DNA of 64,000 nucleotides, from the NCBI GenBank assembly GCA_049288015.1, contig JBAQGX010000001.1:18717-82716 (forward strand). The letters are read 5' to 3'. The DNA is from Candidatus Nanoarchaeia archaeon. Its GTDB lineage: Archaea; Nanobdellota; Nanobdellia; Pacearchaeales; GW2011-AR1. Below are positions 3,534 through 61,325 of this stretch, in pieces (within the stretch, counting starts at the first letter, position 1; each line of letters starts with the position of its first letter). The position numbers were made by a program, and so were the translations under genes. The notes below the pieces were generated by a model that saw only the letters and a program-made list of their open reading frames with translations, was not told where the DNA came from and did no database searches.

Positions 3534-5219
3534 ATGTCATTCATAGTTAAGAAAAAGATACATGGTAATGATTATTTTTATCTTAACGAAAATAAAAGGA
3601 TTGATGGTAAAGTGAAAACTAAGACTTTAGCTTACTTGGGAAAAGATAAGAAAGAGGCGGAGAGACTTGCAAAGGAATATCCTGATAAAAATAAAGCAAA
3701 AAAAGAAATCATGGAAATTAAGAAAGATAAAATTGATGAACCAAAAAACAAGATTTCAATGGAAGAGCTTGCTGCGTTTTGTAAAAGAAAAGGGTTTGTT
3801 TATCCTTCAGGAGAAATTTATGGAGGTTTGGCTGGATTTTGGGATTTTGGGCCACTTGGAGTGGAACTATTAAATAACATAAAAAGAGAGTGGTGGAATT
3901 ATTTTGTAAGAGAAAAGGAAAATATAGCAGGGATAGAAGCGAGCATAATCAGTCCACCAAAAACTTGGAAGGCTTCAGGGCATATTACTAATTTTAATGA
4001 TATTTCTGTAAAGTGCTTAAAATGCAAGAAATATAACAAAATTGACAGGGCAGATTTAGATAAAGCTGTTTGTGGTTTTTGTGGAGGTAATCTAGATAAA
4101 TCAAGTGCGAAGGATTTGAATTTAATGTTTAAGACAAATGTTGGTCCGGTGGAAGAAGATTCTATTCAAGTTTATTTGAGGCCTGAAACTGCACAGGGGA
4201 TGTTTCTTGACTTTAAACTAGTTCAGCAAACATCAAGGATGCAGTTGCCTTTTGGTATAGCTCAGATTGGAAGATGTTTCAGGAATGAAATTGCTCCTAG
4301 AGATTTTTTATTTAGAAGTAGGGAGTTTCATATAGGGGAGTTTGAATTTTTTATAAATCCTGATGAAGTGAGATGTGAATTTTTGGAAGAAAAACATCTA
4401 AAATTAAAATTTAGATTTTTAAGTTCGGAATCGCAAACTAGTGGAAAAAATGAACTGGAAGATAAAACAATTGAAGACATTTTGAGGGAAAAGAGATTGG
4501 AAGAATGGCATGCTTATTGGCTTGCAGAGCAGATTATCTGGTTTAGATCTATAGGATTGGAGGAAATAAAAATTAGGGAACATATGAAGGATGAGCTAAG
4601 TCATTATTCATCCGCAACTTTTGATATAGACTATGAGTATCCTTTTGGAAGTAAGGAAGTTGCAGGAATTGCTAATAGAGGACAGTTTGATCTAAAAAAT
4701 CATGAAAAAGAAAGTAATCAAAGCATGACTCTTTATGATGAAAAATATAAAACTAAAGTAGTTCCAAAAGTAATTGAACCTACATTTGGTATTGAGAGAA
4801 TATTTTTAGGAATTTTAGCAAAGGCATATCATTATAATAAAGAGAAAGATTATACAATTTTAAAAATTCCTTTTAAGCTAGCTCCTATAACTGCAGCAGT
4901 TTTTCCAATTGTAAAACAGCCAGAATATGAAAAAGTTTCAGAAAGAGTTTATCATGAACTTAAAAAAGAATTCAATGTTTTTTATGATAATTCAGGGAGC
5001 ATAGGTAGGAGATATGCAAGAAATGATGAAATTGGGACCCCTTTTTGCATAACTATTGATGAAGACAGTCTGAAAAATAAAGATGTTACTGTGAGGATGA
5101 GAGATAATGGGGAACAATTTAGAGTGAAAGAAAGTATTTTAATTGAATGCATAAAAAGAGTAATTGAAGGAGATAATATTTCTAAATTTGGGAAAAAAGT
5201 TGATACGAGGAAGAAGTAA
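3534..5219 (+). CDS. glyS: Glycyl-tRNA synthetase (archaeal/eukaryotic alpha2 type) with a 75-aa lysine-rich N-terminal extension
   Basis: 561 aa; YPSGEIYGGLAGFWDFGPLG motif 1 region and class II motifs 2/3 with archaeal GlyRS architecture; residues 1-75 are K-rich, stop-free and precede the canonical start-like MEELAAF. Confidence 0.9.
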   Translation: MSFIVKKKIHGNDYFYLNENKRIDGKVKTKTLAYLGKDKKEAERLAKEYPDKNKAKKEIMEIKKDKIDEPKNKISMEELAAFCKRKGFVYPSGEIYGGLAGFWDFGPLGVELLNNIKREWWNYFVREKENIAGIEASIISPPKTWKASGHITNFNDISVKCLKCKKYNKIDRADLDKAVCGFCGGNLDKSSAKDLNLMFKTNVGPVEEDSIQVYLRPETAQGMFLDFKLVQQTSRMQLPFGIAQIGRCFRNEIAPRDFLFRSREFHIGEFEFFINPDEVRCEFLEEKHLKLKFRFLSSESQTSGKNELEDKTIEDILREKRLEEWHAYWLAEQIIWFRSIGLEEIKIREHMKDELSHYSSATFDIDYEYPFGSKEVAGIANRGQFDLKNHEKESNQSMTLYDEKYKTKVVPKVIEPTFGIERIFLGILAKAYHYNKEKDYTILKIPFKLAPITAAVFPIVKQPEYEKVSERVYHELKKEFNVFYDNSGSIGRRYARNDEIGTPFCITIDEDSLKNKDVTVRMRDNGEQFRVKESILIECIKRVIEGDNISKFGKKVDTRKK

Positions 5220-5229
5220 TTGTTATAAA

Positions 5230-5324
5230 TGGCTGCACTGGGAGTCGAACCCAGGACCTCCGGCTGTCCCAAAATAAAAGTCTATTTCATGAGACCAGCG
5301 CTCTACCAACTGAGCTATGCAGCC
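5230..5324 (-). tRNA. Intron-containing tRNA, anticodon CAU (elongator Met or Ile2), about 22-nt intron at canonical 37/38 position
   Basis: Reverse complement folds as GGCTGCA-TA-GCTC...GAGC-G-CTGGT-CTCATG[AAATAGACTTTTATTTTGGGAC]A-GCCGG, variable GAGGTC, T-arm CTGGG-TTCGACT-CCCAG, acceptor TGCAGCC+A. Anticodon stem has two G-U pairs. Confidence 0.65.
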
Positions 5325-17067: not shown

Positions 17068-18921
17068 TTATTCTAATATTGCTTTGATTCTTCTTATTCC
17101 TGCAGAGCTTGAGTCTTCTTTTAGAATTTTAAATTTTCCAAGTTCTTTTGTGTTTGATATATGTGGTCCAGTACAAATTTCTTTGCTGAAATATCCTTTT
17201 TTTTCTGAAGGATCAATTATTGTGTATACAGAAACTTCCTCAGGGTATTTGGCTCCGAATTCTCCTTCTGCACCAGATTTTAAGGCCTCTTTTAGGGGCA
17301 TTTCTTTTCTTGTAACTTTAAGATTATCTTTTATTTTTTTATTAATTAGCTCTTCTACCTTTCTTATTTCTTCATCTGTTAGTTTTCTATTGAAACTAAA
17401 ATCAAATCTTAGCCTTTCTGGTGTTATATTTGATCCTTTCTGATGTATTTCAGAATTATTCAAAATAATCTTAAGTGCGGCATTTAACATGTGAGTTGCA
17501 GTATGAAGTTTGGTTGTTTCTAACGAACTATCGGCTAGTCCAGACTTAAATTTACCAGCAGATGCTGTTCTAGATAAATTTTGATGCTTAGATTGTTTAT
17601 TGTAAAATTCATTTTTTATTTTTTCAGAATTGATTTTAATGTTTTTTTCCTTTAGCATCTCCAAAGTCATTTCTAGAGGGAAGCCGTAAGACTGGTAAAG
17701 TAAAAATGCATCATCTCCAGAAAATTCTTTTTTATTTTCAATTATTTCTTTTAGAATCTCAAGACCTTTGATTAATGTTCCATTAAATTTATTCTCTTCT
17801 TCAAATAAAATTTTCAGAATTTTATCCTTATTGTTTTTTAGTTCTTTATAATCCGAATATATCTTAAACACGGGTTCTGCAATCTTATTTGTGAAAAATC
17901 CTATACGATCTAACTTAATCTTCCTGCCATAAACTATTGCTCTTCTTATTAATCTCCTAAGAACATAGCCCTGTTCTTTATTTCCCGGGATTATTCCATC
18001 CGCAATTATGAAAACAGAAGCCTTAATATGATCTGCAATTATTCTCATTATCCTCATTTCTTCTTCAAGGGATAAATTTCCACCAAGACCTTTTGTAATT
18101 TTTAAGTCAGAATATTTCTCTTTACTTCTTGGATATTCTAATCCAGATAATTCTTCAATTCTACTTATTATTGGGATAAAACTATCTACTAGGTAATCAT
18201 CCTCAAATTCATTTAGGATTGTAATTGTTCTTTCTACTCCCATCCCCGTATCAACATTCTTTTGTTTTGCTATAGTAAATTTTTTTGAAGGCTCCTTTAT
18301 GTACTGCATAAAAACGTCGTTCCAAATTTCTACCCAGTTTTTATCTTTTGAATCAAATTTTCTTGGAATAGGTAAGGAATTTGACTTCCAATAAAATATT
18401 TCTGTGTCCGGGCCGCATGGACCAGTTTGACCTGCTGGGCCCCACCAATTATCACTTTTCCCTAGAAATGCAATTCGTTCTTCTGAGATTCCCATAGATT
18501 CCCAAATTTTTGCAGACTCTTCATCTTTTGGAGCATCTTTATCTCCCTTAAATACACTTACTGCAAGCCTTTCTTTTGGAATTTTAAGGACCTCTGTAAG
18601 AAATTCAAAACTAAATTCAATTGCCTCTTTTTTGAAATAATCCCCCAAACTCCAGTTTCCTAGCATTTCAAAAAGAGTATGGTGATATGTATCTCCGACT
18701 TCTTCTATGTCTTGGGTTCTTATACATCTTTGTACACTTACTAATCTTTTTCCTGACGGATGTTTTTGACCTAGTAGGTAAGGAACAAGAGGGTGCATTC
18801 CTGCAGTTGTGAAAAGAACAGTAGGATCGTTTTGAGGGATAAGACTTGCGTTTGGAATAACCTTATGGTTCTTTGACTTGAAAAAATTTAGGTATTTCTC
18901 AATGAGATCTTTTCTATTCAT
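17068..18921 (-). CDS. alaS: Alanyl-tRNA synthetase, bacterial-type catalytic core, short form (no C-Ala domain)
   Basis: 617 aa; FTTAGMHPLVPY, QRCIRTQDIEEVGDTYHHTLFEMLGNWSLGDYFK (bacterial AlaRS signature), editing-domain HTATH...CTGPH; about 250 aa shorter than canonical AlaRS. Confidence 0.85.
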   Translation of the reverse strand: MNRKDLIEKYLNFFKSKNHKVIPNASLIPQNDPTVLFTTAGMHPLVPYLLGQKHPSGKRLVSVQRCIRTQDIEEVGDTYHHTLFEMLGNWSLGDYFKKEAIEFSFEFLTEVLKIPKERLAVSVFKGDKDAPKDEESAKIWESMGISEERIAFLGKSDNWWGPAGQTGPCGPDTEIFYWKSNSLPIPRKFDSKDKNWVEIWNDVFMQYIKEPSKKFTIAKQKNVDTGMGVERTITILNEFEDDYLVDSFIPIISRIEELSGLEYPRSKEKYSDLKITKGLGGNLSLEEEMRIMRIIADHIKASVFIIADGIIPGNKEQGYVLRRLIRRAIVYGRKIKLDRIGFFTNKIAEPVFKIYSDYKELKNNKDKILKILFEEENKFNGTLIKGLEILKEIIENKKEFSGDDAFLLYQSYGFPLEMTLEMLKEKNIKINSEKIKNEFYNKQSKHQNLSRTASAGKFKSGLADSSLETTKLHTATHMLNAALKIILNNSEIHQKGSNITPERLRFDFSFNRKLTDEEIRKVEELINKKIKDNLKVTRKEMPLKEALKSGAEGEFGAKYPEEVSVYTIIDPSEKKGYFSKEICTGPHISNTKELGKFKILKEDSSSAGIRRIKAILE

Positions 18922-24936: not shown

Positions 24937-26373
24937 TTAATAGCTTCTACCAAAATAAGTCCAATATTTTGCGGGTTTTCCGCAATGTACACATTCTCCA
25001 GAGATTTTTTCTTGATCAAACGGAATAACTCTTGAACCAGCTCCTTTTGTTTGGTCTTTGATTTCTTCTTCGCAATCTTTATCTCCACAGAATTTTGCAA
25101 GAACCAACTTCTTGTTTTTTACCTCTTTAGTAAATTGATTCCAGGTATTAACTTTAATTATTTGAGAATCTAGAAACTTCTTTGCCCTTTCAAACATAGA
25201 GCTCTGAATATCTTCAATTATTTTTTTTGTTTCACCTTTGATCTTATTTATTTTTATGAACTCTTTTTTCCCGTTATCTCTTCTTACTAAAACAACTTGC
25301 TCCTTTTCTAAATCTTTTGGACCAATTTCTAATCTAATTGGTACACCTTTTAGCTCGTACTCAGAATATTTCCAGCCCGGAGAGTATTCTTCTCTTTCAT
25401 CTATTGTTACTTCAAATTCTTTATTTAATTCTTTATAGATCTCTCTTGCTTTTTTTAGAACTTTTTCTTTTTCCGAAGAAACTATTGGAATTATTACAAT
25501 CTGTGTTGGTGCTACGTTTGGAGGAAGAACCAGCCCTTTATTATCTGAATGTGCCATTACTAAAGCACCTATAAGTCTTGTTGAAAATCCCCATGAAGAC
25601 TGCCAAGGAAGAGCTTTTTTTCCATTCTTATCAAGGTAAGAGATTCCAAAGCTTTTTGCAAATCCTTGACCAAGATTATGAGAAGTACCACATTGAAGGG
25701 CTTTTCCCTCTAGAGTAAAACTTTCTATTGTGGTAGTATATTTTGCTCCTGCGAATTTTTCTTTATCTGTTTTTTTGCCCTTTATTAAAGGAATAGCCAA
25801 AAGATTGTTGCAAAGCTTTTCATATTCGTTTAGGAACAGAACTACTTCTTTATCACATTCAGATTCTGTTTCATAAACACAGTGACCTTCCTGCCACAAG
25901 AACTCCCTGCTTCTTAAGAATAATTTGCATTGCGACACTTCCCATCTTACAACATTACACCACTGGTTTATTCTCAATGGAAGATCTCTCCAGCTTCTTA
26001 TCCATCTTGAATATGCATCATATATTATTGTTTCTGATGTGGGTCTTAATGCAATTCTTTCTTCAGAATCTGTTTTTTCAAGCCAAGCAACTTCTGCCTC
26101 AAATCCTTTTGCATGCTCTGATTCTTTTTTGAAAAATGATTCTGGTATAAACATAGGAAAATAAGCATTTGAGACATTTTTTTGCTTTAATACTTTGTTA
26201 AAATAATCCTGAATCTTCTGCCAAATAGCATATCCATATGGCTTGATTATCATTGTCCCTTTCACGGGACCGTATTCTGCCAGTCCTGATTTGAGACAAA
26301 CTTGTGTATACCATTCTGGCATATCTTCTTCTTTTTTTATTGTTATTCCTTCTTCCGATTTCTTATTTTCCAT
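24937..26373 (-). CDS. proS: Prolyl-tRNA synthetase (archaeal/eukaryotic type)
   Basis: 478 aa; class II motifs, C-terminal Zn-binding CVHCG and terminal ...FGRSY characteristic of archaeal-type ProRS. Confidence 0.9.
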   Translation of the reverse strand: MENKKSEEGITIKKEEDMPEWYTQVCLKSGLAEYGPVKGTMIIKPYGYAIWQKIQDYFNKVLKQKNVSNAYFPMFIPESFFKKESEHAKGFEAEVAWLEKTDSEERIALRPTSETIIYDAYSRWIRSWRDLPLRINQWCNVVRWEVSQCKLFLRSREFLWQEGHCVYETESECDKEVVLFLNEYEKLCNNLLAIPLIKGKKTDKEKFAGAKYTTTIESFTLEGKALQCGTSHNLGQGFAKSFGISYLDKNGKKALPWQSSWGFSTRLIGALVMAHSDNKGLVLPPNVAPTQIVIIPIVSSEKEKVLKKAREIYKELNKEFEVTIDEREEYSPGWKYSEYELKGVPIRLEIGPKDLEKEQVVLVRRDNGKKEFIKINKIKGETKKIIEDIQSSMFERAKKFLDSQIIKVNTWNQFTKEVKNKKLVLAKFCGDKDCEEEIKDQTKGAGSRVIPFDQEKISGECVHCGKPAKYWTYFGRSY

Positions 26374-27366: not shown

Positions 27367-28737
27367 TTATTTTAATTTTTTAACCAGTATTTCTCGGACT
27401 ATTTGATTATCTGCTCTTCCTTTGGATTCTTTCATTACCTGTCCGATTAAGAAGTTCAGGGCAGAGTTTTCTCCTTTTTTGTAATCTTCTATTGCTTTCT
27501 TGTTTTCCTTCATAACTTTTTCAATTAGACTTTCAATTTCTTTGATATTTGTTATCTTTTCATTTCCTTTAAACTCTTTTTCTGGTGAAAACGATTTAGG
27601 GATAAATTTATTGAGCATTTTTTTGGCTTGTTCTTCCGTAATTCTTCCTTTCTTCAACATATCTAAAAGTTCAATGAAATGTTCTGGTTTGATTTCAATG
27701 TTTGGAGAATCCAAAGAGGTTTTGTTATAATTCAAAACTCTTAATAACTCTACAGTTACCCAAGGGACGGCTAGTTTAGGTTCAACTTTATTTATTACTT
27801 TTTCAAAGAACTCAGCTATTTCAAGTTTTTTTGAAAGAATCTGAGCGTATTTTTCGGGTATATTATATTTCTTTATTAACTTCTGTAACTTTTCTTGAGG
27901 TGTTTCAGGGAGTGAGCTCTTTATTTTTTCTATTCTTGAATCATCAAGTATAATCATTGGTAAGTCTGGATCTGAGATGAATTTGTAATCTTGTTCTGCT
28001 TCTTTTTCACGCATTTTTTTTGTAATTCCTTTTGCTTCGTCAAACATTCTTGTTTCTTTTGTTTTTGGAACACCTTCTTTTTTTTGACGTGATTCTTCAT
28101 ACTCTATTGCAGATTTTATATTCTTAATACTATTGACATTTTTTATTTCAACTCTCTCGCCTTTTAGTTCTGGGAGTGAAACGTTTACGTCTGCTTTTAA
28201 TCCTGAATTTTTATCTATGGATTTTATGTAACCAAGAGTTATGATCAATTGTTTCAACCAATCGGATACTTCTTCTGATGATTTGAAATCAGGTTCTGTA
28301 ACTATCTCAATAAGAGGGCTTCCGGATTTATTATAATCAATTTCCCCTGTTTTTGGATTCCAAGCGGCGGGATCTTCTTCAAGGTGAACCTCTCTTATCC
28401 TGATTCCAAGAAATTTTCCATTAACTCCAACGGGTGAAGCGTGAGCTCCTGAAATTGTATTTTGATATCCCTTTGGTAAATCTGGCCAATCATAATGCTT
28501 CCTTTGCCAAACAAGTTCCTTATTTATTTTACATTCTAAAATTAATGCTGTTTGAATTGTCCTATTTATTGCTTCTTTATTAGGAAGCATGGGCTTTGAT
28601 CCAGGCTGAGCAGTGCAGATTGGGCAAATGTGAGTATTCGGTTTTGTAAGCTTTGCTCCATGAATAGATTTACATGTACAAAATAATTTTTCTTTTGTAT
28701 CTAAATAACCATGAATTTCCAATCCTATCATGACCAT
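27367..28737 (-). CDS. gatB: Asp-tRNA(Asn)/Glu-tRNA(Gln) amidotransferase subunit B (GatB)
   Basis: 456 aa; IGLEIHGYLDTKEKLFCTC N-terminus (GatB-type), C-terminal YqeY-like helical domain. Confidence 0.85.
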   Translation of the reverse strand: MVMIGLEIHGYLDTKEKLFCTCKSIHGAKLTKPNTHICPICTAQPGSKPMLPNKEAINRTIQTALILECKINKELVWQRKHYDWPDLPKGYQNTISGAHASPVGVNGKFLGIRIREVHLEEDPAAWNPKTGEIDYNKSGSPLIEIVTEPDFKSSEEVSDWLKQLIITLGYIKSIDKNSGLKADVNVSLPELKGERVEIKNVNSIKNIKSAIEYEESRQKKEGVPKTKETRMFDEAKGITKKMREKEAEQDYKFISDPDLPMIILDDSRIEKIKSSLPETPQEKLQKLIKKYNIPEKYAQILSKKLEIAEFFEKVINKVEPKLAVPWVTVELLRVLNYNKTSLDSPNIEIKPEHFIELLDMLKKGRITEEQAKKMLNKFIPKSFSPEKEFKGNEKITNIKEIESLIEKVMKENKKAIEDYKKGENSALNFLIGQVMKESKGRADNQIVREILVKKLK

Positions 28738-31423: not shown

Positions 31424-32881
31424 ATGGATAGTGAAAAGGTAAATTATTCTGAATTGGGTCTTAAATGTGGGCTGGAAATTCACCAACAGCTAAACACTAA
31501 AAAACTATTTTGCGATTGTCCTTCTCTTTTAAGGAGCGAAGATCCAGATTTCTTTATTAGAAGAAAATTACATGCTGTTGCCGGAGAAAGTGGGGAAGTT
31601 GATGTAGCTGCGAAGTATCAGTCTTCTTTAAATAAAAATTTTGTTTATCAAGGTTATGAAGATACTACTTGTCTTGTTGAACTAGATGAATCTCCCCCTA
31701 GAGAAATTAATAAGGACGCTCTTAAAATTGCAGTTCAAGTTTCTTTATTATTAAATTGTAAAATAATTCCGATTACCCAAATAATGAGAAAAACAGTGAT
31801 TGATGGTAGTAACACTTCCGGATTTCAGAGGACGGTTTTAATCGCAGGAGACGGATATGTTGACACCGCTTCCGGTAGAATTGGAATTCAATCTATTTGC
31901 CTAGAAGAAGATTCTGCAAGGATAATATCGGAGAAGGACAATGAAGTTACTTACAGGCTTGATAGGCTAGGTATTCCTTTAATTGAGATTGCAACATTTC
32001 CGGATATTTCTAATCCTGAAGCTGCAAGAGAAGTTGCTCTTTATATTGGAAATGTTTTGAGAAGCTGTGATGTTAAAAGAGGTATAGGTACTATAAGGCA
32101 GGATGTTAATATGTCTCTTAGAAAATTAGGGGGAACGAGGATAGAAATTAAAGGTGTTCAAGAACCTTCTTTGATTGTAAAAACTATTAATTCTGAGATT
32201 GAAAGAGAGGTTAAAGAAAATAAAAAAGTTGAGCCTCAGGTTAGAAAAGCATTGCCTGATGGATCTACTGAATTTTTGAGACCTATGCCAGGAGCTTCTA
32301 GGATGTACCCTGAAACAGATTTACCCCTATTAAGAATAAGAAAGGAGTTTATAGATGAAGTAAAAAGAAGTCTTCCTAAACTGTCTTCTGAAATTGCAGG
32401 TGAGTTGAAGAAATATGGTTTGCATGAGGAACTAATAAAATTAATATTAAAAGGAAATAAAGTTGAAGAATTTAATGAACTTGTTCTTGTAAATAAGAAC
32501 CCTGAACTAGTTGCAAAAGTTCTAGTTCTTTACCCTAAAGAATTGGCTTCTAAAAATAATTTAAGTGAAGATAAAGTGAGTAAGATTTTGAATAAAGATA
32601 TTCTAGTAGAGATTTTGGAATCTGTTGCGAAAAAGAAGATTAATGAAAGGCAAGTAAAAGATGTTCTGGAGAGAATTGTAACTGGAATAGAATTTTCTGA
32701 GGCTGTCAAGTTTGAAGAACATGATTCTGATAAACTTGAAGAAAAGATTATTAATTTAATCAGAGAAAAACCAGGATTGTCTGGGAATGCTTATATGGGT
32801 TTGTTGATGAAAGAGTTCAAAAGAAGAATTGATGCTAAAACTCTGATGGAAATTATTTCAAAACATCTTAAAAAAGATTGA
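31424..32881 (+). CDS. gatE: Glu-tRNA(Gln) amidotransferase subunit E (GatE), short form
   Basis: 485 aa; LGLKCGLEIHQQLNTKKLFCDCPS (GatE-type GLEIHQQL), about 130 aa shorter than typical GatE. Confidence 0.8.
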   Translation: MDSEKVNYSELGLKCGLEIHQQLNTKKLFCDCPSLLRSEDPDFFIRRKLHAVAGESGEVDVAAKYQSSLNKNFVYQGYEDTTCLVELDESPPREINKDALKIAVQVSLLLNCKIIPITQIMRKTVIDGSNTSGFQRTVLIAGDGYVDTASGRIGIQSICLEEDSARIISEKDNEVTYRLDRLGIPLIEIATFPDISNPEAAREVALYIGNVLRSCDVKRGIGTIRQDVNMSLRKLGGTRIEIKGVQEPSLIVKTINSEIEREVKENKKVEPQVRKALPDGSTEFLRPMPGASRMYPETDLPLLRIRKEFIDEVKRSLPKLSSEIAGELKKYGLHEELIKLILKGNKVEEFNELVLVNKNPELVAKVLVLYPKELASKNNLSEDKVSKILNKDILVEILESVAKKKINERQVKDVLERIVTGIEFSEAVKFEEHDSDKLEEKIINLIREKPGLSGNAYMGLLMKEFKRRIDAKTLMEIISKHLKKD

Positions 32882-35012: not shown

Positions 35013-35276
35013 ATGGGAGATTTTCTTTACCATAAACTTTCGGATGATGATATAGAAAGAGTGAAAAAAGAAGCGAAGAATATGCTTGAATCTTTTTCTG
35101 AGAAAATGTCTAAGTTAAAAGTCGCAGAAGAAGAGCCCTCAATAAAAAGAGATAGTTTTGAAAGAGAAGAAAAGAATGGCGAAGAGTGTGATGAATCTTT
35201 TAAGAAAATAATGTTTGAAAATGCACCAAATAAATCTAGAGATTTTATAATTGCGGAAACAAAGAGATGGGAATGA
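35013..35276 (+). CDS. gatC: Asp/Glu-tRNA amidotransferase subunit C (GatC)
   Basis: 87 aa; GatC-like pattern (DDDIERVKKEA helix, EEPS, FENAPNKSRDFIIAETK C-terminus); overlaps gatA start by 10 nt. Confidence 0.6.
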   Translation: MGDFLYHKLSDDDIERVKKEAKNMLESFSEKMSKLKVAEEEPSIKRDSFEREEKNGEECDESFKKIMFENAPNKSRDFIIAETKRWE

Positions 35277-36595
35277 CTACTGTTGAAAAACTTAAGACAT
35301 ATCTTGAAGAGATAAATAAGAATGATAAGCAAGGAAAGAAGATAAATGCATTTTTGCACTTGCAAGATGAGAAAGAACTTTTAAGAGAAGCTGGAGAAAT
35401 TGATAAAAAGATAAAATCTGGAAGAGCAGGAAAACTTGCTGGAAAAATTATTGCCGTAAAATCTAATATAAATGTTAAAGGATTGATTGCTTCATGTGCT
35501 TCTCATGTCCTTGAGGATTACAAGGCTTCCTATGACGCAACAGCCATAGGGAAAATCAAGAAAGAAGATGGATTAATAATTGGTATGACTAATATGGATG
35601 AATTTGCTTCTGGAAGCAGTGGAGAAACTTCTGCATTTGGTCCAATAAAAAATCCCGTAAATTTAGATTTAATCCCCGGAGGATCTTCTAGTGGTAGTGC
35701 TGCTTCTGTTGCAGCTGGTTTTTGTGATTTGGCTCTTGGAAGTGATACTGGAGGAAGCATAAGAAATCCTGCATCTCATTGTGGAGTTGTGGGAATAAAG
35801 CCAACTTATTCTTCTGTTTCAAGGTACGGACTTATTGATTTATCTATGAGTCTTGATCAGATTGGTACTTTTGCAAAGAATGTTTCAGATGCAGGTCTAT
35901 TGTTAAGTGTTATAAAAGGAAAAGATAATAGAGATTCAATTTCACAAGAGTCTAAGGAAATTGATTTAAATGAGATTGAAAAAACCAGTAATTTTACTAT
36001 TGGAATATTAAATTTTGAATTGAAAGATAAGAAAATACAAAATCTGATTTTAAGTAGAATAAAGGAAGCAGCAAAGAGATATAATTGGAAAACTGAAAAT
36101 ATAACAATAAAAGGCATTGATTTGGCTATTGAAACTTATTATCCTTTAGTTTATGTGGAATTTTTTTCAGGAACTAGAAAATTTGATGGAAGAAGATATG
36201 GAAGAAAAATTGAAGATGCTGCAGGAGAAGAAGTTTTAAGAAGGATTTTAGGAGGTAGTGAAATTTCAAGAGAAGAATATGGCGGGAGATATTATCATAG
36301 AGCTTTGAAAATAAAAAAGTTGATTGAGAAAGAATTTTCTGATGTTTTTAAAAAAGTGGACTGTATTATTTCTGCAACTGTTCCAAAGCTTCCTCACAAA
36401 ATCGGGACAAAAATCTCTGTTAGAGAAATGTATGAATATGATGCTTTAACTGCTCCTTCAAATTTAGCCGGAAACTGTGCTATTAGTCTTCCTGCAGGAA
36501 AAATTGACGGAGTTCCAGTAGGAATGCAAATAATGTGCGATAAATTTCAAGAACAAAAAATGCTTCAGATTGCAAGATTGTTTGAGAAGTTCTAA
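35267..36595 (+). CDS. gatA: Asp/Glu-tRNA amidotransferase subunit A (GatA, amidase family)
   Basis: 442 aa; amidase signature GGSSGGSAASVAAG, catalytic Ser-cisSer-Lys context. Confidence 0.9.
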   Translation: MGMTTVEKLKTYLEEINKNDKQGKKINAFLHLQDEKELLREAGEIDKKIKSGRAGKLAGKIIAVKSNINVKGLIASCASHVLEDYKASYDATAIGKIKKEDGLIIGMTNMDEFASGSSGETSAFGPIKNPVNLDLIPGGSSSGSAASVAAGFCDLALGSDTGGSIRNPASHCGVVGIKPTYSSVSRYGLIDLSMSLDQIGTFAKNVSDAGLLLSVIKGKDNRDSISQESKEIDLNEIEKTSNFTIGILNFELKDKKIQNLILSRIKEAAKRYNWKTENITIKGIDLAIETYYPLVYVEFFSGTRKFDGRRYGRKIEDAAGEEVLRRILGGSEISREEYGGRYYHRALKIKKLIEKEFSDVFKKVDCIISATVPKLPHKIGTKISVREMYEYDALTAPSNLAGNCAISLPAGKIDGVPVGMQIMCDKFQEQKMLQIARLFEKF

Positions 36596-39275: not shown

Positions 39276-40376
39276 TTAAAAATTTATAACTCCTCCGCCA
39301 AGAACTTCTTTTCCTTTGTAAAGAACAATTGCCTGACCTTCAGAAATTCCAGTTATCTCTTTTTTTAAGTTAACTTCAAATCTTTTTTTACTTTTATTAT
39401 AAGACAGTCTTGAAGGTATTAGTTCTCCTACTTGCCTAATTCTTGAATAAACTTGGTATTTTCTATCTTCTTTAATTGGATTTATCCAATGAGGTTCAGT
39501 TAGAATTATTTCTTTTCTATATAGCAAAGGGTGACCTTCAGGAGCAGCTATTATTGTATTATTTTTTACATTTTTTCTTGCAACATACCATCTCTTTAGA
39601 TTTTTATTATCCAAATTCTTTCTGTTGATTTCAAATCCATATCTGGGACCAAGACGTTGTCCTATTGTGTAATAATAAATTCCGTCATGTTCTCCAATTA
39701 CGTTTCCTTCAGGATCAAGAATTTTGCCTTTTTTTGGTTTTATCTTCTTTTTTAAAAAATCTTTAAGATTTATTTTTCCTATGAAGCAAATACCTACTGT
39801 TGATTTTTTGTTGAAATTTGGGAACTCTGCTTTTTCTGCAATTTTTCTTATTTTTCTCTTTGTGTAATTTCCTATCGGGAACAAAGAATGTTTTAATTCT
39901 TCTTGAGTCAAAGTATAAAGAAAATAAGACTGATCTTTAGACTCATCTTTTGCCCTTAAAAGTTTGAACTTATTTCCGAACTTCTTGATCCTTCCATAAT
40001 GTCCAGTTACAATGAAGTCTGCACCTATTTTTTCTGCTTCTTTTATTAATTTTGGGAATTTTATCTTTTTGTTACAATCAATATCTGGGTTTGGAGTTAT
40101 TCCTTGTTTGTATTTATTGAACATTTCTTCTATAACTTGTTTTTTGTATTCTTTTTCGTAATCAACAGTCATGAGTGGAATATCTAGCATTGAAGCAATT
40201 TTTACGGCCATTCTTCTTTCATCTTTCCAACTACATTCTCCAAATTCATTTTTGGTATCAGACCAGTTTTTCATGAAGACACCTATAACCTCATATCCTT
40301 TCTTCTTCATCATAAGCGCAGCTACACTAGAATCAACCCCTCCGGACATAGCCACAAGAACCTTTAGTTTCTTCAT
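39276..40376 (-). CDS. mnmA: tRNA-specific 2-thiouridylase MnmA (bacterial type)
   Basis: Start moved to MKKLKVLVAMSGGVDSSV (PP-loop SGGxDS) because the tRNA-Asn gene abuts the longer ORF; TPNPDIDCN and TGHY motifs. Confidence 0.85.
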   Translation of the reverse strand: MKKLKVLVAMSGGVDSSVAALMMKKKGYEVIGVFMKNWSDTKNEFGECSWKDERRMAVKIASMLDIPLMTVDYEKEYKKQVIEEMFNKYKQGITPNPDIDCNKKIKFPKLIKEAEKIGADFIVTGHYGRIKKFGNKFKLLRAKDESKDQSYFLYTLTQEELKHSLFPIGNYTKRKIRKIAEKAEFPNFNKKSTVGICFIGKINLKDFLKKKIKPKKGKILDPEGNVIGEHDGIYYYTIGQRLGPRYGFEINRKNLDNKNLKRWYVARKNVKNNTIIAAPEGHPLLYRKEIILTEPHWINPIKEDRKYQVYSRIRQVGELIPSRLSYNKSKKRFEVNLKKEITGISEGQAIVLYKGKEVLGGGVINF

Positions 40377-40410
40377 AATTATACTTCGAAAAATTAGTTT
40401 AAAAAACAAG

Positions 40411-45122: not shown

Positions 45123-47168
45123 TTACATCTTCTGGATAAATCCCTGTTTTGGTTTAAATATAATACTGTTCTTTTCCAACTCAACTAGAGCATCTCCAAT
45201 TTCATCTTTACTCATCTTTCCTTCCAATTCTTTTTCTACTTCTTCTAGGGGAATCATCTTTCCTATTTTTCCTTCCAATTCAGAGATTACGTCTCTTACC
45301 GCAAATACTTTGTTTCTTTGTGATGAACTAATTCTATTGCTAATTCTATCAATATCAAATGTTTTTGATTCATAATCATAACCTACTTGCATAAGATAAT
45401 ATTTCATAAGGTCAATTGCCCTTTTTGAATCTTCTTTTGTTGCAACACTGCTTAATCTTAATTTTGCAGAAGCTTCCGACATTCTTATAAGTGCTTCAAG
45501 TTGTCTTGCTGATATTGGGATGGGTCTCATTGCTCCTTCTGATGACACAGGAGTGTTTCTTAATTCAACATAGAATCTTTCTATCTCTTTCATTGCATCT
45601 TGGTTCAACAAAGGTTTTATTTTCTGTCTTGCATATGCTATATATTTTCTAATAATGCTTGTTGGTATAAGTGTTTCTGAAGTTTCACTTTTTGTATGTT
45701 CATACAAAACATGAGCTGCAATTTTTTGATCTTTGTCTCTATCTGGAATGTCTCTTAATGTAAATATAATATCAAATCTATTTATCAATGTTGGAGGGAG
45801 ATCAATTTGTTGTGCAACAGGTTGATAAGGATCAAATCTTCCGAATTTTGGGTTTGCAGCTGCCAGTACAGAAGTTTCACTTCTTAATGTTGCTTGAATA
45901 TTTGCTTTAGATATTGTAATTGTTTGTTGTTCCATCGCCTCGTGCATTGCACTTCTATCTTGTGGATCCATTTTTTCAAGTTCATCTATACAGATAATTC
46001 CCTTGTTTGCAAGGACCATAGCTCCTGCTTCTAGACTCCATCCTCTTAGATATTCATCTCTGACAACAGTAGCGGTCAGTCCTGCACCTGAAGCTGACTT
46101 TCCAACAACATATCTCCCTTTCGGAGAGATATCTGCTATATAACTTAATGTTACTGATTTTGCAACTCCGGGATCACCTATCAGCAAGATGTGGATATCC
46201 CCCCTCTTTTTTTGGCCGTCCGAAAAAATCTTTCTTACCCCTCCAAATAATTGTAGAATTAAGGATTTTTTTATTTCTTCATATCCCCAGACTCCGGGGA
46301 CAATACTTTTTGCAAGATTATCAAATAGATGGGGGTCCTGTGATAGTTCAATTATTTGTCTTTCATCTTCTTCAGAAATATCTAGTTCTTCAAAAGTTTC
46401 TTCCAAAGAGATTATATTATTGGTTTCAATTGCAAGTTCAAATCTTGTTGATACTCCTCCCCCCTGCAATGGAACTGGGACTTCTTTCAAAACTCCTATA
46501 ACCTTAACTCTGCTTCCCGGGGTTGTTTTTTCTTCCATTTTAGGTTCAACTAAATCTTCTTTAACAAAAACATTAATTCTCTTTGGTTGTTCTCCTCCCG
46601 AAAGGGATTCTGGTGTTTCTTCTATTACTAGTCTTTGAGTATCAACCATGTCTTTAGTTAAGAGTTTGAAGCCACCTCTTCTTCCACATGAACATCTCAT
46701 TGGTTCCCTGAATTTTTTCTCAATTTGTAGTACTGAGAGTATAGTTCCGCATGAAGGGCATTCAAATTTTGCATTTACAACCTGGGGACGAACATCAGAA
46801 GACTGTTTTATTATACCTTCAAGAATTATGAGTTCGTCAAGATGTTTTGAACGAAGGTCTCTTATTTTAAGACTTTGTGAATCAGGTAGATTAGTAAGCC
46901 TTACTCTTGGTTTGTTTATCAGGCCAGACTCTTCAATTGCTGTTTCTATAAGGCTTAACGTTTCTTCGGGCATTGCAAGAATTTCATCAGATAATTTGTT
47001 TGAAAATTCGGTTATTTTCATAAAATCAAGAAAAATTACACTGTTTCCCTTTCTTATTGAATCCCCAAGCTCTTTTTTGTAGAAATCAAAGAAATTCTTG
47101 GCTTCAATAATAAGTTCTTCTTTGTTTGACTTTTTTGGCTCTCTTTTTTCTTCTATCTCTTCTTCCAT
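45123..47168 (-). CDS. mcm: MCM replicative helicase
   Basis: 681 aa; N-terminal Zn finger (CPSCG...CSCG), Walker A GDPGVAKS, Walker B CIDELEKM, arginine finger SARQ region. Confidence 0.9.
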   Translation of the reverse strand: MEEEIEEKREPKKSNKEELIIEAKNFFDFYKKELGDSIRKGNSVIFLDFMKITEFSNKLSDEILAMPEETLSLIETAIEESGLINKPRVRLTNLPDSQSLKIRDLRSKHLDELIILEGIIKQSSDVRPQVVNAKFECPSCGTILSVLQIEKKFREPMRCSCGRRGGFKLLTKDMVDTQRLVIEETPESLSGGEQPKRINVFVKEDLVEPKMEEKTTPGSRVKVIGVLKEVPVPLQGGGVSTRFELAIETNNIISLEETFEELDISEEDERQIIELSQDPHLFDNLAKSIVPGVWGYEEIKKSLILQLFGGVRKIFSDGQKKRGDIHILLIGDPGVAKSVTLSYIADISPKGRYVVGKSASGAGLTATVVRDEYLRGWSLEAGAMVLANKGIICIDELEKMDPQDRSAMHEAMEQQTITISKANIQATLRSETSVLAAANPKFGRFDPYQPVAQQIDLPPTLINRFDIIFTLRDIPDRDKDQKIAAHVLYEHTKSETSETLIPTSIIRKYIAYARQKIKPLLNQDAMKEIERFYVELRNTPVSSEGAMRPIPISARQLEALIRMSEASAKLRLSSVATKEDSKRAIDLMKYYLMQVGYDYESKTFDIDRISNRISSSQRNKVFAVRDVISELEGKIGKMIPLEEVEKELEGKMSKDEIGDALVELEKNSIIFKPKQGFIQKM

Positions 47169-47276: not shown

Positions 47277-47398
47277 GAGCCTATAGCTCAGCCTGGCTAG
47301 AGCACCGCTCTTATATGATTACAGTTCATAGGAATTGTATCTCTCATGGAAGTATCTAAGGGAGGCGGGGGTCCACGGTTCAAATCCGTGTAGGCTCA
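47277..47398 (+). tRNA. Intron-containing tRNA, candidate tRNA-Ile (anticodon UAU), 47-nt intron at 37/38
   Basis: GAGCCTA-TA-GCTC-AGCCTGGCTA-GAGC-A-CCGCT-CTTATA[intron 47316-47362]A-GGCGG-GGGTC-CACGG-TTCAAAT-CCGTG-TAGGCTC-A; U33 and purine 37 conserved, giving UAU if the intron is canonical. Confidence 0.6.
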
Positions 47399-52680: not shown

Positions 52681-53298
52681 GTGAGAAGATTTATGAGAAA
52701 AAGTACTTTACTTGCATTTATAATTGCGGTTAATAATATGTTAATGCCTTCTGTAGTAGAAGCTCCGGCTGTTCCTAATTATAGACTTTCACATTATGGT
52801 ACTAATTCAGGATCTGGAGGTTTTATTGATCATTTTGTATCTGAAAAGAAGGCTAGTGACTTACTGAACTATAAAACTTACAATTTCAATAACGACAATG
52901 ATGAAGTACTTTTAGCTAGGATGATATTTGGAGAAGGGGAAAGTTTGTCCAAGGCAGAAAAAATTGAGATTGCCTATACTGCTATTCATAGAGTAAAAGA
53001 AGGATATGGAAAAAGTTTGAAAGAAGTTCTATTGAACCCTTATCAATACTCTTGTTTTAATGAAGGCACGGATAGTTCTATTTTCTTGAAGGATCCATTG
53101 AATCATAATCCTAAAGAATTTTTTGCGTCTTTGGAAGTTTCTGAGGGGATTTTGAGTGGTAAAATTAAAGACACTGAAGACAGAGCAACTTTTTATTATG
53201 ATCCTATGGTAGTTAGCAAACCAAAATGGGCAAATGGTTTAGAAAAAATCTCAAGGCCTGGCTTTCATCACAGATTTTATAGGAAAATAAAACATTAA
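52681..53298 (+). CDS. Secreted SleB-like cell-wall hydrolase domain protein (Hydrolase_2 family)
   Basis: 205 aa; signal peptide; LLARMIFGEGES...EIAYTAIHRV...NPYQYSCFN matches the SleB/CwlJ catalytic-domain pattern. Confidence 0.55.
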   Translation: MRRFMRKSTLLAFIIAVNNMLMPSVVEAPAVPNYRLSHYGTNSGSGGFIDHFVSEKKASDLLNYKTYNFNNDNDEVLLARMIFGEGESLSKAEKIEIAYTAIHRVKEGYGKSLKEVLLNPYQYSCFNEGTDSSIFLKDPLNHNPKEFFASLEVSEGILSGKIKDTEDRATFYYDPMVVSKPKWANGLEKISRPGFHHRFYRKIKH

Positions 53299-54416: not shown

Positions 54417-54487
54417 TATAACTCAATATCAAAATTCTTTTTAAATATTTTCTACAAATATTTATAAATAATAATTGTATCATAAAA

Positions 54488-56527
54488 TTGGTAAAAATGA
54501 GGAAGATATTTTTTAGTTTGGCATTTGTGTTGTCGATGGTGTTTTTATCTTATTCTGCTTCCGCTCAAGTGGCTTTTAGCTCTCAACCAAATAGCATTTA
54601 CAACGTTGGAGATGTGATAAATGCTTCCAATATTACAATTTCGCCAGATTTGATTGGAGGGATTTCAGTTTATCTTGTATGTAACACCACCTCTCATTTG
54701 ATTGGACCAACTTATCCCAGTGGTATTCCTTATATTCCTTCATTTGTTTTGACTGAGAGTAATATTGGGGGTTCGTCTGCTGTATGTTCCATTCAAGCTT
54801 ATTTGAATAATACTTGGGAAGGGGGTACAAATCCATTCCAAGTTTCAAATTCGGTTAATGTCGTCGTTTCTTCTGGCAGTCGAGAGTTTAAACCTGGAGA
54901 TCAGATTTCTTTTCAAGGTAATGCTATAAAACAAGATGGTCAGAATCTTGATGGAATTGTTGGTTTAAGTGTGATAAATGAAGAAGGTGTTTCTATCTAT
55001 CAAGTTTCGAGTGTTTTAACGAACGGATCTTTTTTGTTTAATTTTTCATTGCCTTCTGGTACTGCGGCAGGGCAATATCTTGTTTCTCTTAATGCTTATG
55101 AAATGGATTCTTCTGGAGTGGAGATTAATACAGGTTCTACTGGTTTTAATATGTTGATAGATCAGGTGCCAACAAGTTTGAATTTGGTACCTCAGAATAG
55201 TGCTCAGAGTATTGCACCAGGCCAGGGTTATAGTCTTGAGGCTATTCTCTATGATCAAACGGGTCAAGAAATCAATTCGCTTGTTAATTTTACAATAAAT
55301 AAGAGTGACGGGATTATGAGCCAACAGGCAAATACAGACCAGTTTATTAATATCCCTGTAAGTTATGATGATCCTCCTAATACTTGGGCAGTTATTGCAA
55401 ATTCTGAAGGTCTTAGTGCTCAGTTAAGTTTTCAAGTACTTGAGAATAAAAATGTTACAATAGATTTATTGGGTAGAACTGTTTTAGTTACAAATGTAGG
55501 TAATGTTCCTTACAATGATCCAATTAGTGTTAATCTTGGGAATCAATCTCTTGTTTTTAATGTTTCCTTAGGTGTTGGGCAGAGTCATAAGTATGTTTTA
55601 AGTGCTCCAGATGGGAATTATTCTATTGAAATTTCGAGCCTTGGAAGTGATTTATATAATGGGAATTTGTTGCTTACAGGAAATGCTATAGGTGTTCAGC
55701 AGGCCCCAATGGGAGCAAGTTTTATTCAATATCCTCTTGTCTGGATAGTTCTTTTAATTATCTTAGCAGTACTCGTTTTCTTTTTGATTAAGAGATTATC
55801 TAAGAAGAAATTTATGAAAAAAGTTGATTTGAATAAAAGTTTTAGGTTGAGAGACGGGATAGTGATAAGTAATGGAAAGGATGAGATTTCAAGTAGGGGT
55901 AGGTTTGTGAATAGTAGAAATGTTGCCGAGCTGTCATTGTCTTTGCAAGGTACCAAACATGGCTCTACAATTGTTTGTTTGGGAATAAGAAACTTCTCTG
56001 AAATTAGATCCGGAAAAGGAGGAATAAGTGAGACTATGAATAGGATTAAATCTATCGCAGATGAATTTAACGCTGCAGTTTATGAAAATGGATCTAATAT
56101 ATTCCTTATCTTTTCTCCATTAAGAACCAAATCTCAGAATAATGATCTTGCTGCGATACAATCTGCAGAGCAGGTGCAGAAAGTTTTGCAAGACCATAAT
56201 AGGTTGTTGAAGCAGAAAATAGACTTTGGAATATCTGTGCATTATGGAATGATTGTTGCTAAACTGGGGGTAAGTGGTATGAAGTTTATGACGTTGGGCA
56301 ATGTGATTTCAACTGCTAAAAAACTTGCGGCTGTTTCTAATGGGGAAGTTTTCCTTAGTAAAGAAGTTAGAGATAGAATTGCAACTGATGTAAAGACGGA
56401 AATGCATTCTAGTGGGGACTTAAGTTACTATACTCTTCTTGAAATAAGAAATAGAGAAAAGAACCAGAAATTTATTAAAGATTTTATGAATAAGATGGAA
56501 AGAGAAGAAAAGGAAAAAAGATCTTAA
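54488..56527 (+). CDS. Receptor-like surface glycoprotein: signal peptide, Ig/CARDB-like ectodomain, single TM, cytoplasmic degenerate class III nucleotidyl-cyclase-homology domain
   Basis: 679 aa; signal peptide; many N-x-S/T sequons; TM at about residues 417-436; C-terminal STIVCLGIRNFSEI...GSNIFLIFS...FGISVHYGMIVAKLGVSGMKFMTLGNVISTAKKL...GEVFLS aligns to the CHD fold but both metal-binding Asp are replaced. Confidence 0.55.
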   Translation: MVKMRKIFFSLAFVLSMVFLSYSASAQVAFSSQPNSIYNVGDVINASNITISPDLIGGISVYLVCNTTSHLIGPTYPSGIPYIPSFVLTESNIGGSSAVCSIQAYLNNTWEGGTNPFQVSNSVNVVVSSGSREFKPGDQISFQGNAIKQDGQNLDGIVGLSVINEEGVSIYQVSSVLTNGSFLFNFSLPSGTAAGQYLVSLNAYEMDSSGVEINTGSTGFNMLIDQVPTSLNLVPQNSAQSIAPGQGYSLEAILYDQTGQEINSLVNFTINKSDGIMSQQANTDQFINIPVSYDDPPNTWAVIANSEGLSAQLSFQVLENKNVTIDLLGRTVLVTNVGNVPYNDPISVNLGNQSLVFNVSLGVGQSHKYVLSAPDGNYSIEISSLGSDLYNGNLLLTGNAIGVQQAPMGASFIQYPLVWIVLLIILAVLVFFLIKRLSKKKFMKKVDLNKSFRLRDGIVISNGKDEISSRGRFVNSRNVAELSLSLQGTKHGSTIVCLGIRNFSEIRSGKGGISETMNRIKSIADEFNAAVYENGSNIFLIFSPLRTKSQNNDLAAIQSAEQVQKVLQDHNRLLKQKIDFGISVHYGMIVAKLGVSGMKFMTLGNVISTAKKLAAVSNGEVFLSKEVRDRIATDVKTEMHSSGDLSYYTLLEIRNREKNQKFIKDFMNKMEREEKEKRS

Positions 56528-60087: not shown

Positions 60088-60540
60088 TTATAAATCTTTT
60101 ATCATCCAAGTGGGCATTCCAAGTGAAAGCCCGAGAGCTTTTGAGTCATATTCGTTCCTTGTGTTATTATTATTTATAGATATAAATTTCATCTTTAACT
60201 TATCCTTACTGCAGATTTTTATGTTCTGTTTTATTCTTGAGATTATATCTGCTTTTTCTTTTTCATTTGAATTAATCACTTCATCAAGGAAAATTCCTAT
60301 TTGAGATTTACTTTTTTTTGCAATTTTTGACATGACTGAATTTAGTCCAGAGTTTCTTTGTTTTTGTCTATCTTTTCTTCCCTTTTGTTTTATTAACAAG
60401 ATGGAGACTTTTTCTTTTTCTAATATTTTTCTATTCAATTCGTCATCCATGCTAGTGAAAACTATAGTTTTTTTGCTATTTTCACGTATTATTTTCCTTG
60501 CTTTATCGAAATTATTCTCTTCTACAATTATGTAACTCAT
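60088..60540 (-). CDS. Hypothetical protein (weak resemblance to RNase P Rpp30-like C-terminal region; unassigned)
   Basis: 150 aa, K/N-rich; no confident motif. Confidence 0.35.
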   Translation of the reverse strand: MSYIIVEENNFDKARKIIRENSKKTIVFTSMDDELNRKILEKEKVSILLIKQKGRKDRQKQRNSGLNSVMSKIAKKSKSQIGIFLDEVINSNEKEKADIISRIKQNIKICSKDKLKMKFISINNNNTRNEYDSKALGLSLGMPTWMIKDL

Positions 60541-61325
60541 TTTTTCTTACTTTTTACATTTGAATCTTTACTTAAACTTTTGGGAACTTCATGTTTTGAA
60601 AACATGTCATAAATCTTGAATCCTGCTCTGAATAATTCTATAATTATTCCAATAAGCAGTATACCAACCCCTATTATAATCATTCTGATAAAAATATAAT
60701 TTGATTGAGAGAATAGTAATGAAGCTGCAGACGACAAGGTTACGTTTTGCAGGTGAGATAATATCTGGCTAATTCCTAGTAAAGGTAAAGATGCAATTAC
60801 CATAAAACCTCCTACTATAAACGGCAAGTTTTGCTTTTTTTTGAATAAGATGAATAAGATAGCAGTAGTTATTATGAAAACTGCTAGTGAGATATAAAAT
60901 ATCTTTTGCCAGTAATTATCAGACTTTTCTGATATTAAGAATAGTGGAGAATACTGGTTGAAACAATTCCAGTAAGAGCAGTTATATGTTTTGTAATATG
61001 AATCAGAGATAAAATTTTCTATAGTATCTGTTATTATTGTAATTTCGTCCTTGTTTACATCTTGACATGGAAAATGAAGTACATAACCCTCATAACTAAA
61101 AACATAATCAGGATTATTATTGCAATAATTTTTTATTAATGGAAGATTTTCGTCAACTTGTTGAATTATATTAAACTGTTGATTTATTATTGGTGAAAGA
61201 TTTGCTGCTTGATTTTGAATATTTTCATATTTTAAAGAAGATGATAGATCTAATGATATTGCTGCCGTTAATAGAGATAGAAACAATAATATGCAAGATA
61301 AAGCTATAAAAAAGCTTTTTATCAT
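60537..61325 (-). CDS. Hypothetical membrane protein with Cys-containing extracytoplasmic domain
   Basis: 262 aa; N-terminal TM/signal, central soluble domain with 6 Cys (CNNNPDY...CQDV...CSYWNC), three C-terminal TM helices. Confidence 0.45.
   Translation of the reverse strand: MIKSFFIALSCILLFLSLLTAAISLDLSSSLKYENIQNQAANLSPIINQQFNIIQQVDENLPLIKNYCNNNPDYVFSYEGYVLHFPCQDVNKDEITIITDTIENFISDSYYKTYNCSYWNCFNQYSPLFLISEKSDNYWQKIFYISLAVFIITTAILFILFKKKQNLPFIVGGFMVIASLPLLGISQILSHLQNVTLSSAASLLFSQSNYIFIRMIIIGVGILLIGIIIELFRAGFKIYDMFSKHEVPKSLSKDSNVKSKKK

Follow-up and report, generated by a model that had tools for sequence, protein, structure and literature searches.

Receptor-type class III nucleotidyl cyclases, such as ESAG4/GRESAG4 of the trypanosomatids and the membrane guanylyl cyclases of animals, consist of a large extracellular domain, a single transmembrane (TM) helix and an intracellular cyclase-homology domain (CHD), and they are thought to be activated by a dimerisation of the CHDs that is driven by the ectodomain (PMC6027212). 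In archaea no class III cyclase has been characterised, and the enzyme making archaeal cyclic AMP is unknown (PMC10249747). Here we describe a protein with the same order of parts from a DPANN archaeon. It is encoded on a stretch of 64,000 nucleotides from Candidatus Nanoarchaeia archaeon (assembly GCA_049288015.1, contig JBAQGX010000001.1, positions 18,717 to 82,716 of the forward strand), which is called the window in the following and has a G+C content of ~32%. A preliminary description of the window had pointed to an open reading frame (ORF) at 54488..56527 (+) and had read its product as a single-pass surface glycoprotein fused to a degenerate CHD, i.e., as a candidate pseudo-cyclase receptor. 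The ORF, which counts 679 amino acids (aa) from its TTG codon at 54488, was confirmed as described, and the pseudo-cyclase receptor reading is supported.

As judged from profile comparisons, the cytoplasmic domain of the window protein is specifically CHD-derived, i.e., it descends from the catalytic domains of class III nucleotidyl cyclases. This conclusion is drawn from a profile match that fails in reversed controls and from the non-matches to GGDEF domains and in PADLOC. With 48 verified PF00211 domains as the CHD reference set, hhalign aligned the family profile at 95.3% and E 2.3e-8 over 171 columns, corresponding to aa 483-655 of the window protein, whereas reversing either alignment gave 0.2% and E 0.24-0.26; the identity to the reference CHDs in this profile alignment is ~11%. 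The register is the one that had been proposed from the letters of the window: GISVHYGMIVAKLGV aligns to GIGINTGEVVVGNIG, TLGNVISTAKKL to VVGSHVNLTSRIE and GEVFLS to GQILIS. A hidden Markov model (HMM) built from the verified CHDs was also run against 3172 ORFs of the window and 80 related loci and returned 43 matches, all of them members of the family (43/43, against none of ~3090 other ORFs), with the window ORF scoring E 2e-5. Thus, the profile search for a CHD that had been suggested as a check found its match. Conversely, a 47-sequence profile of the domain has exactly three matches at E<10 among all PDB sequences, and all three are class III cyclases, namely 2W01 (E 0.071), 3MR7 and 6FHT, which align in the same register with marginal E values of 0.07-1.2. 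PF00211 is the only recurrent Pfam match on the cytoplasmic domain; it was found in 4 of 47 members and, at E<=0.01, in 5 of 72, with a best E of 1.4e-5. In the closest homolog, P0001, it reaches 16.6 bits over profile positions 72-167 in the expected register, below the gathering score of 21.9 bits.

Detection of this kinship needs profiles. The window protein alone has no PF00211 match even at E<=10, single-sequence searches with the full protein and with its C-terminal 201 aa gave no cyclase match in Pfam, in NCBIfam or by phmmer in the PDB, and phmmer against the PDB found no cyclase for L028 either, the most cyclase-like family member. Together with a weak match of one member to PycC (E 0.018), these results are what can be said for the domain not being a CHD at all, its likeness then being that of a generic ferredoxin-like or palm fold (GGDEF, a Pycsar/CBASS-type cyclase) or due to chance. 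This explanation is largely refuted and we regard it as extremely improbable, as the CHD match runs through the entire domain in a single register. GGDEF, which the preliminary description had named as a fold that would speak against a CHD, is rejected: hhalign against 48 verified PF00990 domains gave 0.3% and E 0.2, no PF00990 match was found among 47 or 72 members, and the hairpin reads YENGSN, without a GGDEF motif. A Pycsar/CBASS-type defence cyclase was likewise rejected. Apart from the PycC match just mentioned, PADLOC found nothing significant for 6 members, whereas a CHD used as positive control (P0158) matched PycC at 1.9e-17, and the gene stands in a conserved housekeeping context (aminoacyl-tRNA synthetase genes, HIT protein, M48 peptidase) and not in a defence island.

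The predicted order of secondary-structure elements would be in line with a CHD. A single-sequence AlphaFold2 run on the cytoplasmic part gave no usable model (predicted local distance difference test, pLDDT, 37), whereas the full-length model, with 108 full-length members as the alignment, has a mean pLDDT of 91.8. The CHD fold has the order beta1-alpha1-beta2-beta3-alpha2/3-beta4-beta5(arm)-alpha4-beta6-alpha5-beta7-beta8; the CHD topology is summarised in PMC6027212. In the model the first half of the domain comprises beta(479-482), beta(489-500), alpha(503-506, 513-526), beta(530-534), beta(537-542) and alpha(544-547, 553-573), and the second half beta(580-594), beta(597-602), alpha(606-616), beta(621-624), alpha(625-630), beta(635-642) and beta(645-653). 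This predicted order fits the catalytic domain of class III cyclases, down to the long arm formed by beta4 and beta5. The cytoplasmic part had also been considered as an unusually basic, nucleic-acid-binding domain, which was rejected, as its isoelectric point (pI) of ~9.5 lies within about one standard deviation of the organism's background.

The catalytic residues of class III cyclases have been lost in this domain. The first metal-binding Asp, which is D in 32/32 reference CHDs, is G499 in the window protein (55982-55984); among 108 family members the position holds K in 66 (61%), N in 11, R in 9 and H in 6, and an acidic residue in none. The second metal-binding Asp (D in 46/48 reference CHDs) is S536 (56093-56095), with D in 43, E in 18, G in 21 and N in 17 family members, i.e., it is acidic in 61/108. 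Hence, the substitution of both metal Asp residues, as claimed by the preliminary description, is correct, but the second equivalent lies two residues before the quoted stretch IFLIFSPL; HMMER places it one residue later, at N537. The proposed check for conserved transition-state residues had a negative outcome. The transition-state Asn (N in 46/48 reference CHDs) is S608 in the window protein and T in 35, S in 18, N in only 15 and G in 10 of the 108 members, and the transition-state Arg (R in 47/48) is K612, with K in 86 and R in 19 members. At the base-specifying positions the window protein has E533 and M601, the second one being Met or Thr in the family.

Class III catalysis cannot proceed without the metal Asp residues (PMC6027212). 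As these are lost family-wide, we infer from the established two-metal mechanism that neither the window protein nor any other member of the family has canonical cyclase activity. With the transition-state Asn lost as well, cyclase activity is not to be expected. The earlier claim of a catalytically dead domain is therefore strengthened, and the degeneracy is, as far as the alignment tells, ancestral to the family, because the first metal Asp is missing in all 108 members examined. The two former metal-ligand positions covary: of the 81 members with a basic residue at 499, 55 have an acidic one at 536, whereas 6 of the other 27 do (odds ratio 7.4; p 4e-5 without phylogenetic correction). A salt bridge between the two positions probably fills the former metal site in these members. 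The window protein has neither partner of this pair (G499/S536).

Nevertheless, we take the domain for a functional pseudo-enzyme and not for a decaying one, since no other part of the protein evolves as slowly and since it has near-invariant polar residues of its own. By column conservation, the CHD and the membrane-proximal ectodomain module D4 rank highest and the linker between TM helix and CHD, with a pairwise identity of 19%, lowest. Compared with the closest relative, L001, the CHD has a nonsynonymous divergence (dN) of 0.074 and 86% aa identity, whereas the ectodomain has a dN of 0.298 and 62%. As the synonymous divergence (dS) is saturated (>1 or undefined) even for this relative, contrasts of dN and identity were used and ratios are merely indicative. 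The near-invariant set of the family comprises G488, K501, N502, K528, Y532, P544, T547, T549, F550, N552, H570, N571, K611, F662 and F666. From the ferredoxin-like topology, N502, H570, N571, K501 and K611/K612 would be expected close to that end of the sheet where the active site used to be, and G488, Y532 and the P544-E553 motif at the opposite end, beside the N-terminal strand and the C-terminal helix. At three near-invariant sites the window protein and its nearest relatives differ from the family (K528 to N, T549 to S and F550 to Q; 56069-56137, aa 528-550), and the consensus TKTFKNE reads TKSQNND in the window protein, which hints at a divergent sub-clade around it.

Purifying selection of this strength on polar residues, some of them presumably at the "top" of the palm sheet, where the active site lies (N502, H570, N571, K501), would also be expected if the domain was an active enzyme with altered chemistry that turns over a nucleotide or another phosphorylated substrate by means of the Lys, His, Asn and Thr residues of the family. 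However, the family alignment has no invariant acidic residue in the CHD-derived domain, the former metal-ligand sites vary (499 is K/N/R/H/S/G, 536 is D/G/E/N) in a way not expected of catalytic residues, and two-metal catalysis is common to all known class III cyclases (PMC6027212). We therefore consider such an enzyme very unlikely. Hardly more probable is that the degenerate CHD is the C2-like half of a heterodimeric cyclase, pairing head-to-tail with a competent CHD encoded elsewhere, as do C1/C2 of the mammalian enzymes or the alpha/beta subunits of soluble guanylyl cyclase. The conserved dibasic K611/K612 at the helix of the transition-state Arg, E533 at a base-specifying position and the CHD dimerisation hairpin (beta4-beta5), which appears to be retained in the model, would fit this arrangement. 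The partner that the preliminary description had suggested to look for was not found, however, as the CHD HMM, run over the 64-kb window and ~0.8 Mb of flanking sequence of the 80 related genomes, detected no second CHD. The C2-like residues are degenerate too (Asn in 15/108, the Arg mostly Lys, the second base-specifying position Met/Thr), and the lack of any characterised class III cyclase in archaea (PMC10249747) speaks against this arrangement as well.

According to hydropathy and the AlphaFold2 model, the gene product is a type-I membrane protein with the ectodomain outside and the CHD-derived domain inside. This agrees with the signal peptide, single TM helix and cytoplasmic domain that had been described. 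The protein starts with a hydrophobic signal sequence ending in ASA before Q, and aa ~406-439 are the only other strong hydrophobic segment, with a Kyte-Doolittle maximum of 3.3 at aa 416. This segment is followed by KRLSKKKFMKK, a positive-inside signature, and the single TM segment with the subsequent K/R-rich stretch indicates an N-out/C-in topology. The model shows, in this order, the signal helix, four all-beta modules, the TM helix 416-439, a disordered linker (440-466), the alpha/beta domain and a terminal helix (656-678).

The ectodomain (aa 28-405) is all-beta in the model and consists of four beta-sandwich modules, D1 to D4. The preliminary description had predicted CARDB/Ig-like repeats, of which the beta-sandwich nature holds, but Pfam finds CARDB in none of 72 members and instead the macroglobulin (MG) domain MG2 in 64/72 (best E 2.5e-11); in the window protein MG2 matches D2 with E 1.9e-6, below the gathering score. 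Foldseek with the full-length model against the PDB gave MG-domain arrays for all of the top 50 matches (complement C3/C4/C5, alpha2-macroglobulin, TEP1, CD109; E 4e-13 to 5e-11, TM score ~0.2), with no match of the cytoplasmic domain among these 50. With a TM score of this size, the likeness to macroglobulin arrays is at the level of the repeated domains of the model and not of the overall assembly. Pfam found no thioester, TED or bait region among the 72 members, apart from A2M_BRD in 1/72. The ectodomain is very acidic (pI 4.05, K+R 1.9%), and it contains 12 N-x-S/T sequons, whereas composition-preserving shuffles contain 7.1 +/- 2.4 (p = 0.036). The ectodomain can therefore be called sequon-rich, as proposed, but just mildly beyond its composition: the family mean is only 5.2 sequons, and the enrichment is mild and in part due to the N/S-rich composition. 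C65 and C100, which probably form a disulfide, are kept in 108/108 members, and D256, Q257, G338 and N339 are further invariant residues of the ectodomain. The most conserved ectodomain module is D4 with its TNxGNVPYN motif, in which N336, G338 and N339 are invariant or nearly so.

These properties allow for a structural surface protein, S-layer-like or an adhesin stalk, in which the CHD-derived domain would be a mere cytoplasmic anchor or scaffold attachment without signalling or ligand sensing. Acidity (pI 4.05, 1.9% K+R), N/S-rich composition, sequons and Ig-like domains are as in archaeal surface glycoproteins, the gene is present in one copy per genome in a housekeeping neighbourhood, the disordered linker offers no obvious conformational coupling, and among close relatives the ectodomain is the faster-evolving part. 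S-layer proteins, however, normally do not have a large conserved cytoplasmic domain, whereas in this family the cytoplasmic domain is the most constrained part, with invariant polar residues (T547, N571, N552, N502) that suggest specific recognition. Invariant C65, C100, D256, Q257, G338 and N339 would also be unusual for a merely structural lattice protein. A purely structural role thus is a serious but unlikely alternative.

A word-index search with the cytoplasmic part yielded 8 relatives, none of which is named or annotated by Pfam. The profile of these relatives was compared with 1.84 billion cluster representatives and matched 661 proteins at E<=1e-3 and 268 at E<=1e-30; as these represent 50%-identity clusters, the family comprises at least 661 clusters. 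The whole architecture is conserved, since most of the 661 matches are 650-700 aa long with the domain at the C-terminus. Neither Pfam nor NCBIfam has a model for the family, and in the literature on cyclases or pseudo-cyclases of DPANN archaea and Woesearchaeota nothing was found about it. A scan of one genome per GTDB species, based on a 9-sequence alignment and requiring two exact peptide patterns, so that its counts are lower bounds, gave 83 loci, of which 80 were kept, with one locus per assembly. The family probably is single-copy. All kept loci are labelled Nanoarchaeota, Woesearchaeota or Pacearchaeota with the exception of three bins labelled Bacillota bacterium (L027), Patescibacteria group bacterium (L046) and "bacterium" (L070), in which the gene has the same archaeal ThrRS/TrpRS synteny as in the Nanoarchaeota loci. 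Because of this synteny the three bins are probably mislabelled. The scan shows that the family is restricted to Nanoarchaeota (Woese-/Pacearchaeota), where it is widespread and core-like. The statement that a receptor-type CHD is unusual in archaea therefore needs to be limited: it is rare in characterised archaea, but not within Nanoarchaeota.

The gene neighbourhood is conserved as well. TrpRS divergently adjoins the gene in 62/80 loci, ThrRS is nearby in 43/80 and an M48 peptidase in 33/80; in the window the neighbours are an archaeal-type ThrRS, TrpRS, PheRS beta/alpha, a HIT protein and an M48 peptidase. The convergent downstream neighbour in 62/80 loci is an uncharacterised Cys-rich membrane protein, located at 60537-61325 (-) in the window. 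This 262-aa protein starts with a TM segment or signal sequence, continues with an extracellular part rich in Cys and ends in TM helices; it has no Pfam match. The adjacency may reflect a functional linkage or mere conservation of gene order. None of the conserved neighbours (TrpRS, ThrRS, Cys-rich membrane protein, M48 peptidase) is transcribed in the same direction as the gene; an operon that would indicate a partner is thus not in evidence.

The features of the gene and of other genes in the window are listed in Table 1. Translation probably starts at ATG 54497 rather than at TTG 54488, since the homologs begin with MRK/MKK and a TATA-like box, TTTATAAAT, is found ~28 nt upstream of that ATG, in a 71-bp divergent intergenic region that is shared with TrpRS. 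At the 3' end, the stop codons of the ORF and of the convergent PheRS beta gene overlap by 4 nt.

Table 1. Parts of the pseudo-cyclase gene and further genes of the window (window coordinates).
Feature	Position	Strand	Remark
TATA-like box TTTATAAAT	54461..54469	+	~28 nt 5' of ATG 54497; read directly from the sequence; putative promoter
Whole ORF	54488..56527	+	679 aa from TTG; 676 aa from ATG 54497
Signal peptide, aa 1-27, MVKMRKIFFSLAFVLSMVFLSYSASA before Q	54488..54568	+	hydropathy and AlphaFold2 helix 3-22; equivalent N-termini in homologs
Ectodomain module D1, aa 28-120, beta-sandwich, C65 and C100	54569..54847	+	AlphaFold2 model
Ectodomain module D2, aa 121-226, MG2 macroglobulin-type beta-sandwich	54848..55165	+	Pfam and Foldseek
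Ectodomain module D3, aa 227-319, beta-sandwich, invariant P244, D256, Q257	55166..55444	+	AlphaFold2 and column conservation
Ectodomain module D4, aa 320-405, membrane-proximal beta-sandwich	55445..55702	+	AlphaFold2 and column conservation
Single TM helix, aa ~406-439 (AlphaFold2 helix 416-439; conserved W419)	55703..55804	+	hydropathy and AlphaFold2
Juxtamembrane linker, aa 440-478, K/R-rich	55805..55921	+	predicted disordered, pLDDT <50
Degenerate class III CHD, aa 479-655	55922..56452	+	hhalign, 171 columns, E 2.3e-8
C-terminal amphipathic helix, aa 656-679, conserved F662, F666, R/K669	56453..56524	+	family-specific addition after the CHD
Class II aminoacyl-tRNA synthetase	3534-5219		
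LeuRS	7092-9563		
AlaRS	17068-18921		
ProRS	24937-26373		
GatB	27367-28737		
GatE-like gene	31424-32881		
GatA amidase	35267-36595		
MnmA-type tRNA thiolase	39276-40409		
MCM	45123-47168		

The window is unusually dense in translation genes from 3534 to 60065; besides those of Table 1 it holds ThrRS, TrpRS, PheRS beta/alpha and 8 tRNAs. Two tRNA matches are longer than 75 nt, at 47277-47398 (+) with 122 nt and at 5230-5324 (-) with 95 nt, and these probably are intron-containing archaeal tRNAs. Between ThrRS and TrpRS lies the gene of a secreted "Cell Wall Hydrolase" of the SleB type (52681-53298, +; Pfam Hydrolase_2, E 2.6e-7). It belongs to a bacterial peptidoglycan-lytic enzyme family, is present in just 5/80 related loci and may have been acquired for use against bacterial hosts or neighbours.

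Taken together, we favour, with moderate confidence, a single-pass receptor or adhesion molecule that uses a pseudo-cyclase as its output or anchor domain. The CHD-like domain would then be a non-catalytic binding or dimerisation module, whose ligand may be anionic (a nucleotide or phosphate) or else a cytoplasmic partner, contacted via N502/H570/N571/K501/K611/K612 and the PxxTKTFxNE surface. A regulatory or scaffolding role of the dead domain, as suggested by the preliminary description, would be in keeping with this. Because the linker is disordered and unconserved, coupling to the fast-evolving ectodomain would occur by clustering or dimerisation and not by a rigid helical transducer; a dimerisation-type coupling has been proposed for the trypanosomatid receptor cyclases (PMC6027212). 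A much more specific and rather improbable version is that the family is a conserved contact or host sensor of Woese-/Pacearchaeota, in which the acidic MG ectodomain recognises the surface of a partner cell and the clustered pseudo-cyclase domains bind a nucleotide-type messenger or an effector via N502/T547/N552/H570/N571/K611. If so, a dead class III cyclase would have given rise to a new signalling output in archaea from which no cyclic nucleotide machinery is otherwise known.

The receptor reading we favour would make the family a natural example of a pseudo-enzyme receptor in DPANN archaea, organisms about whose cell-surface biology and host interactions hardly anything is known. A profile for the family would annotate hundreds of DPANN proteins now called hypothetical, and the family offers a defined, soluble domain of ~200 aa for ligand tests. 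In an actinobacterial survey (PMC2447327), "pseudo" stands for pseudogene, so that this survey was of no use for the family.

Compared with archaeal S-layer or surface glycoproteins, the window protein is compatible in being secreted, acidic, sequon-bearing, built of Ig-like domains and C-terminally membrane-anchored, whereas its conserved cytoplasmic domain of 240 aa is atypical. With alpha2-macroglobulin and complement C3-C5 it shares MG2 in D2, and the whole-model Foldseek matches are those MG arrays; unlike them, it has just four beta-sandwich modules (~380 aa) and no thioester domain, bait region or CUB/TED. Cyclase folds that are kept as binding or regulatory modules without catalysis are known from the forskolin site of mammalian adenylyl cyclase C1/C2 and from the degenerate GGDEF receptors PelD and LapD. 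The concept is the same as in the window family, but these systems are bacterial or eukaryotic with known ligands, whereas the window family is archaeal and not related to GGDEF at profile level. By sequence, the closest known systems are the Cya2-type bacterial CHDs (2W01, also 3MR7 and the CHD of 6FHT), which are the best matches among solved structures and align from beta2 to beta6 in one register. They share glycine/aromatic motifs with the window protein, G581/G587 corresponding to GIGINTG and F600/G604 to KYGVVG, but have the catalytic D/D/N/R set that the window family does not have. By topology, the closest known systems are the receptor-type class III cyclases. However, these carry a Venus-flytrap/PBP ectodomain instead of four MG/Ig-like beta-sandwiches, the window protein has just a disordered linker in place of a kinase-homology or coiled-coil transducer, its family has lost the metal Asp residues together with the transition-state Asn, and it comes from a DPANN archaeon. 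The window protein is thus a CHD-superfamily pseudo-enzyme fused to an MG-domain ectodomain, and since the defining catalytic features fail, it is not to be filed as a cyclase.

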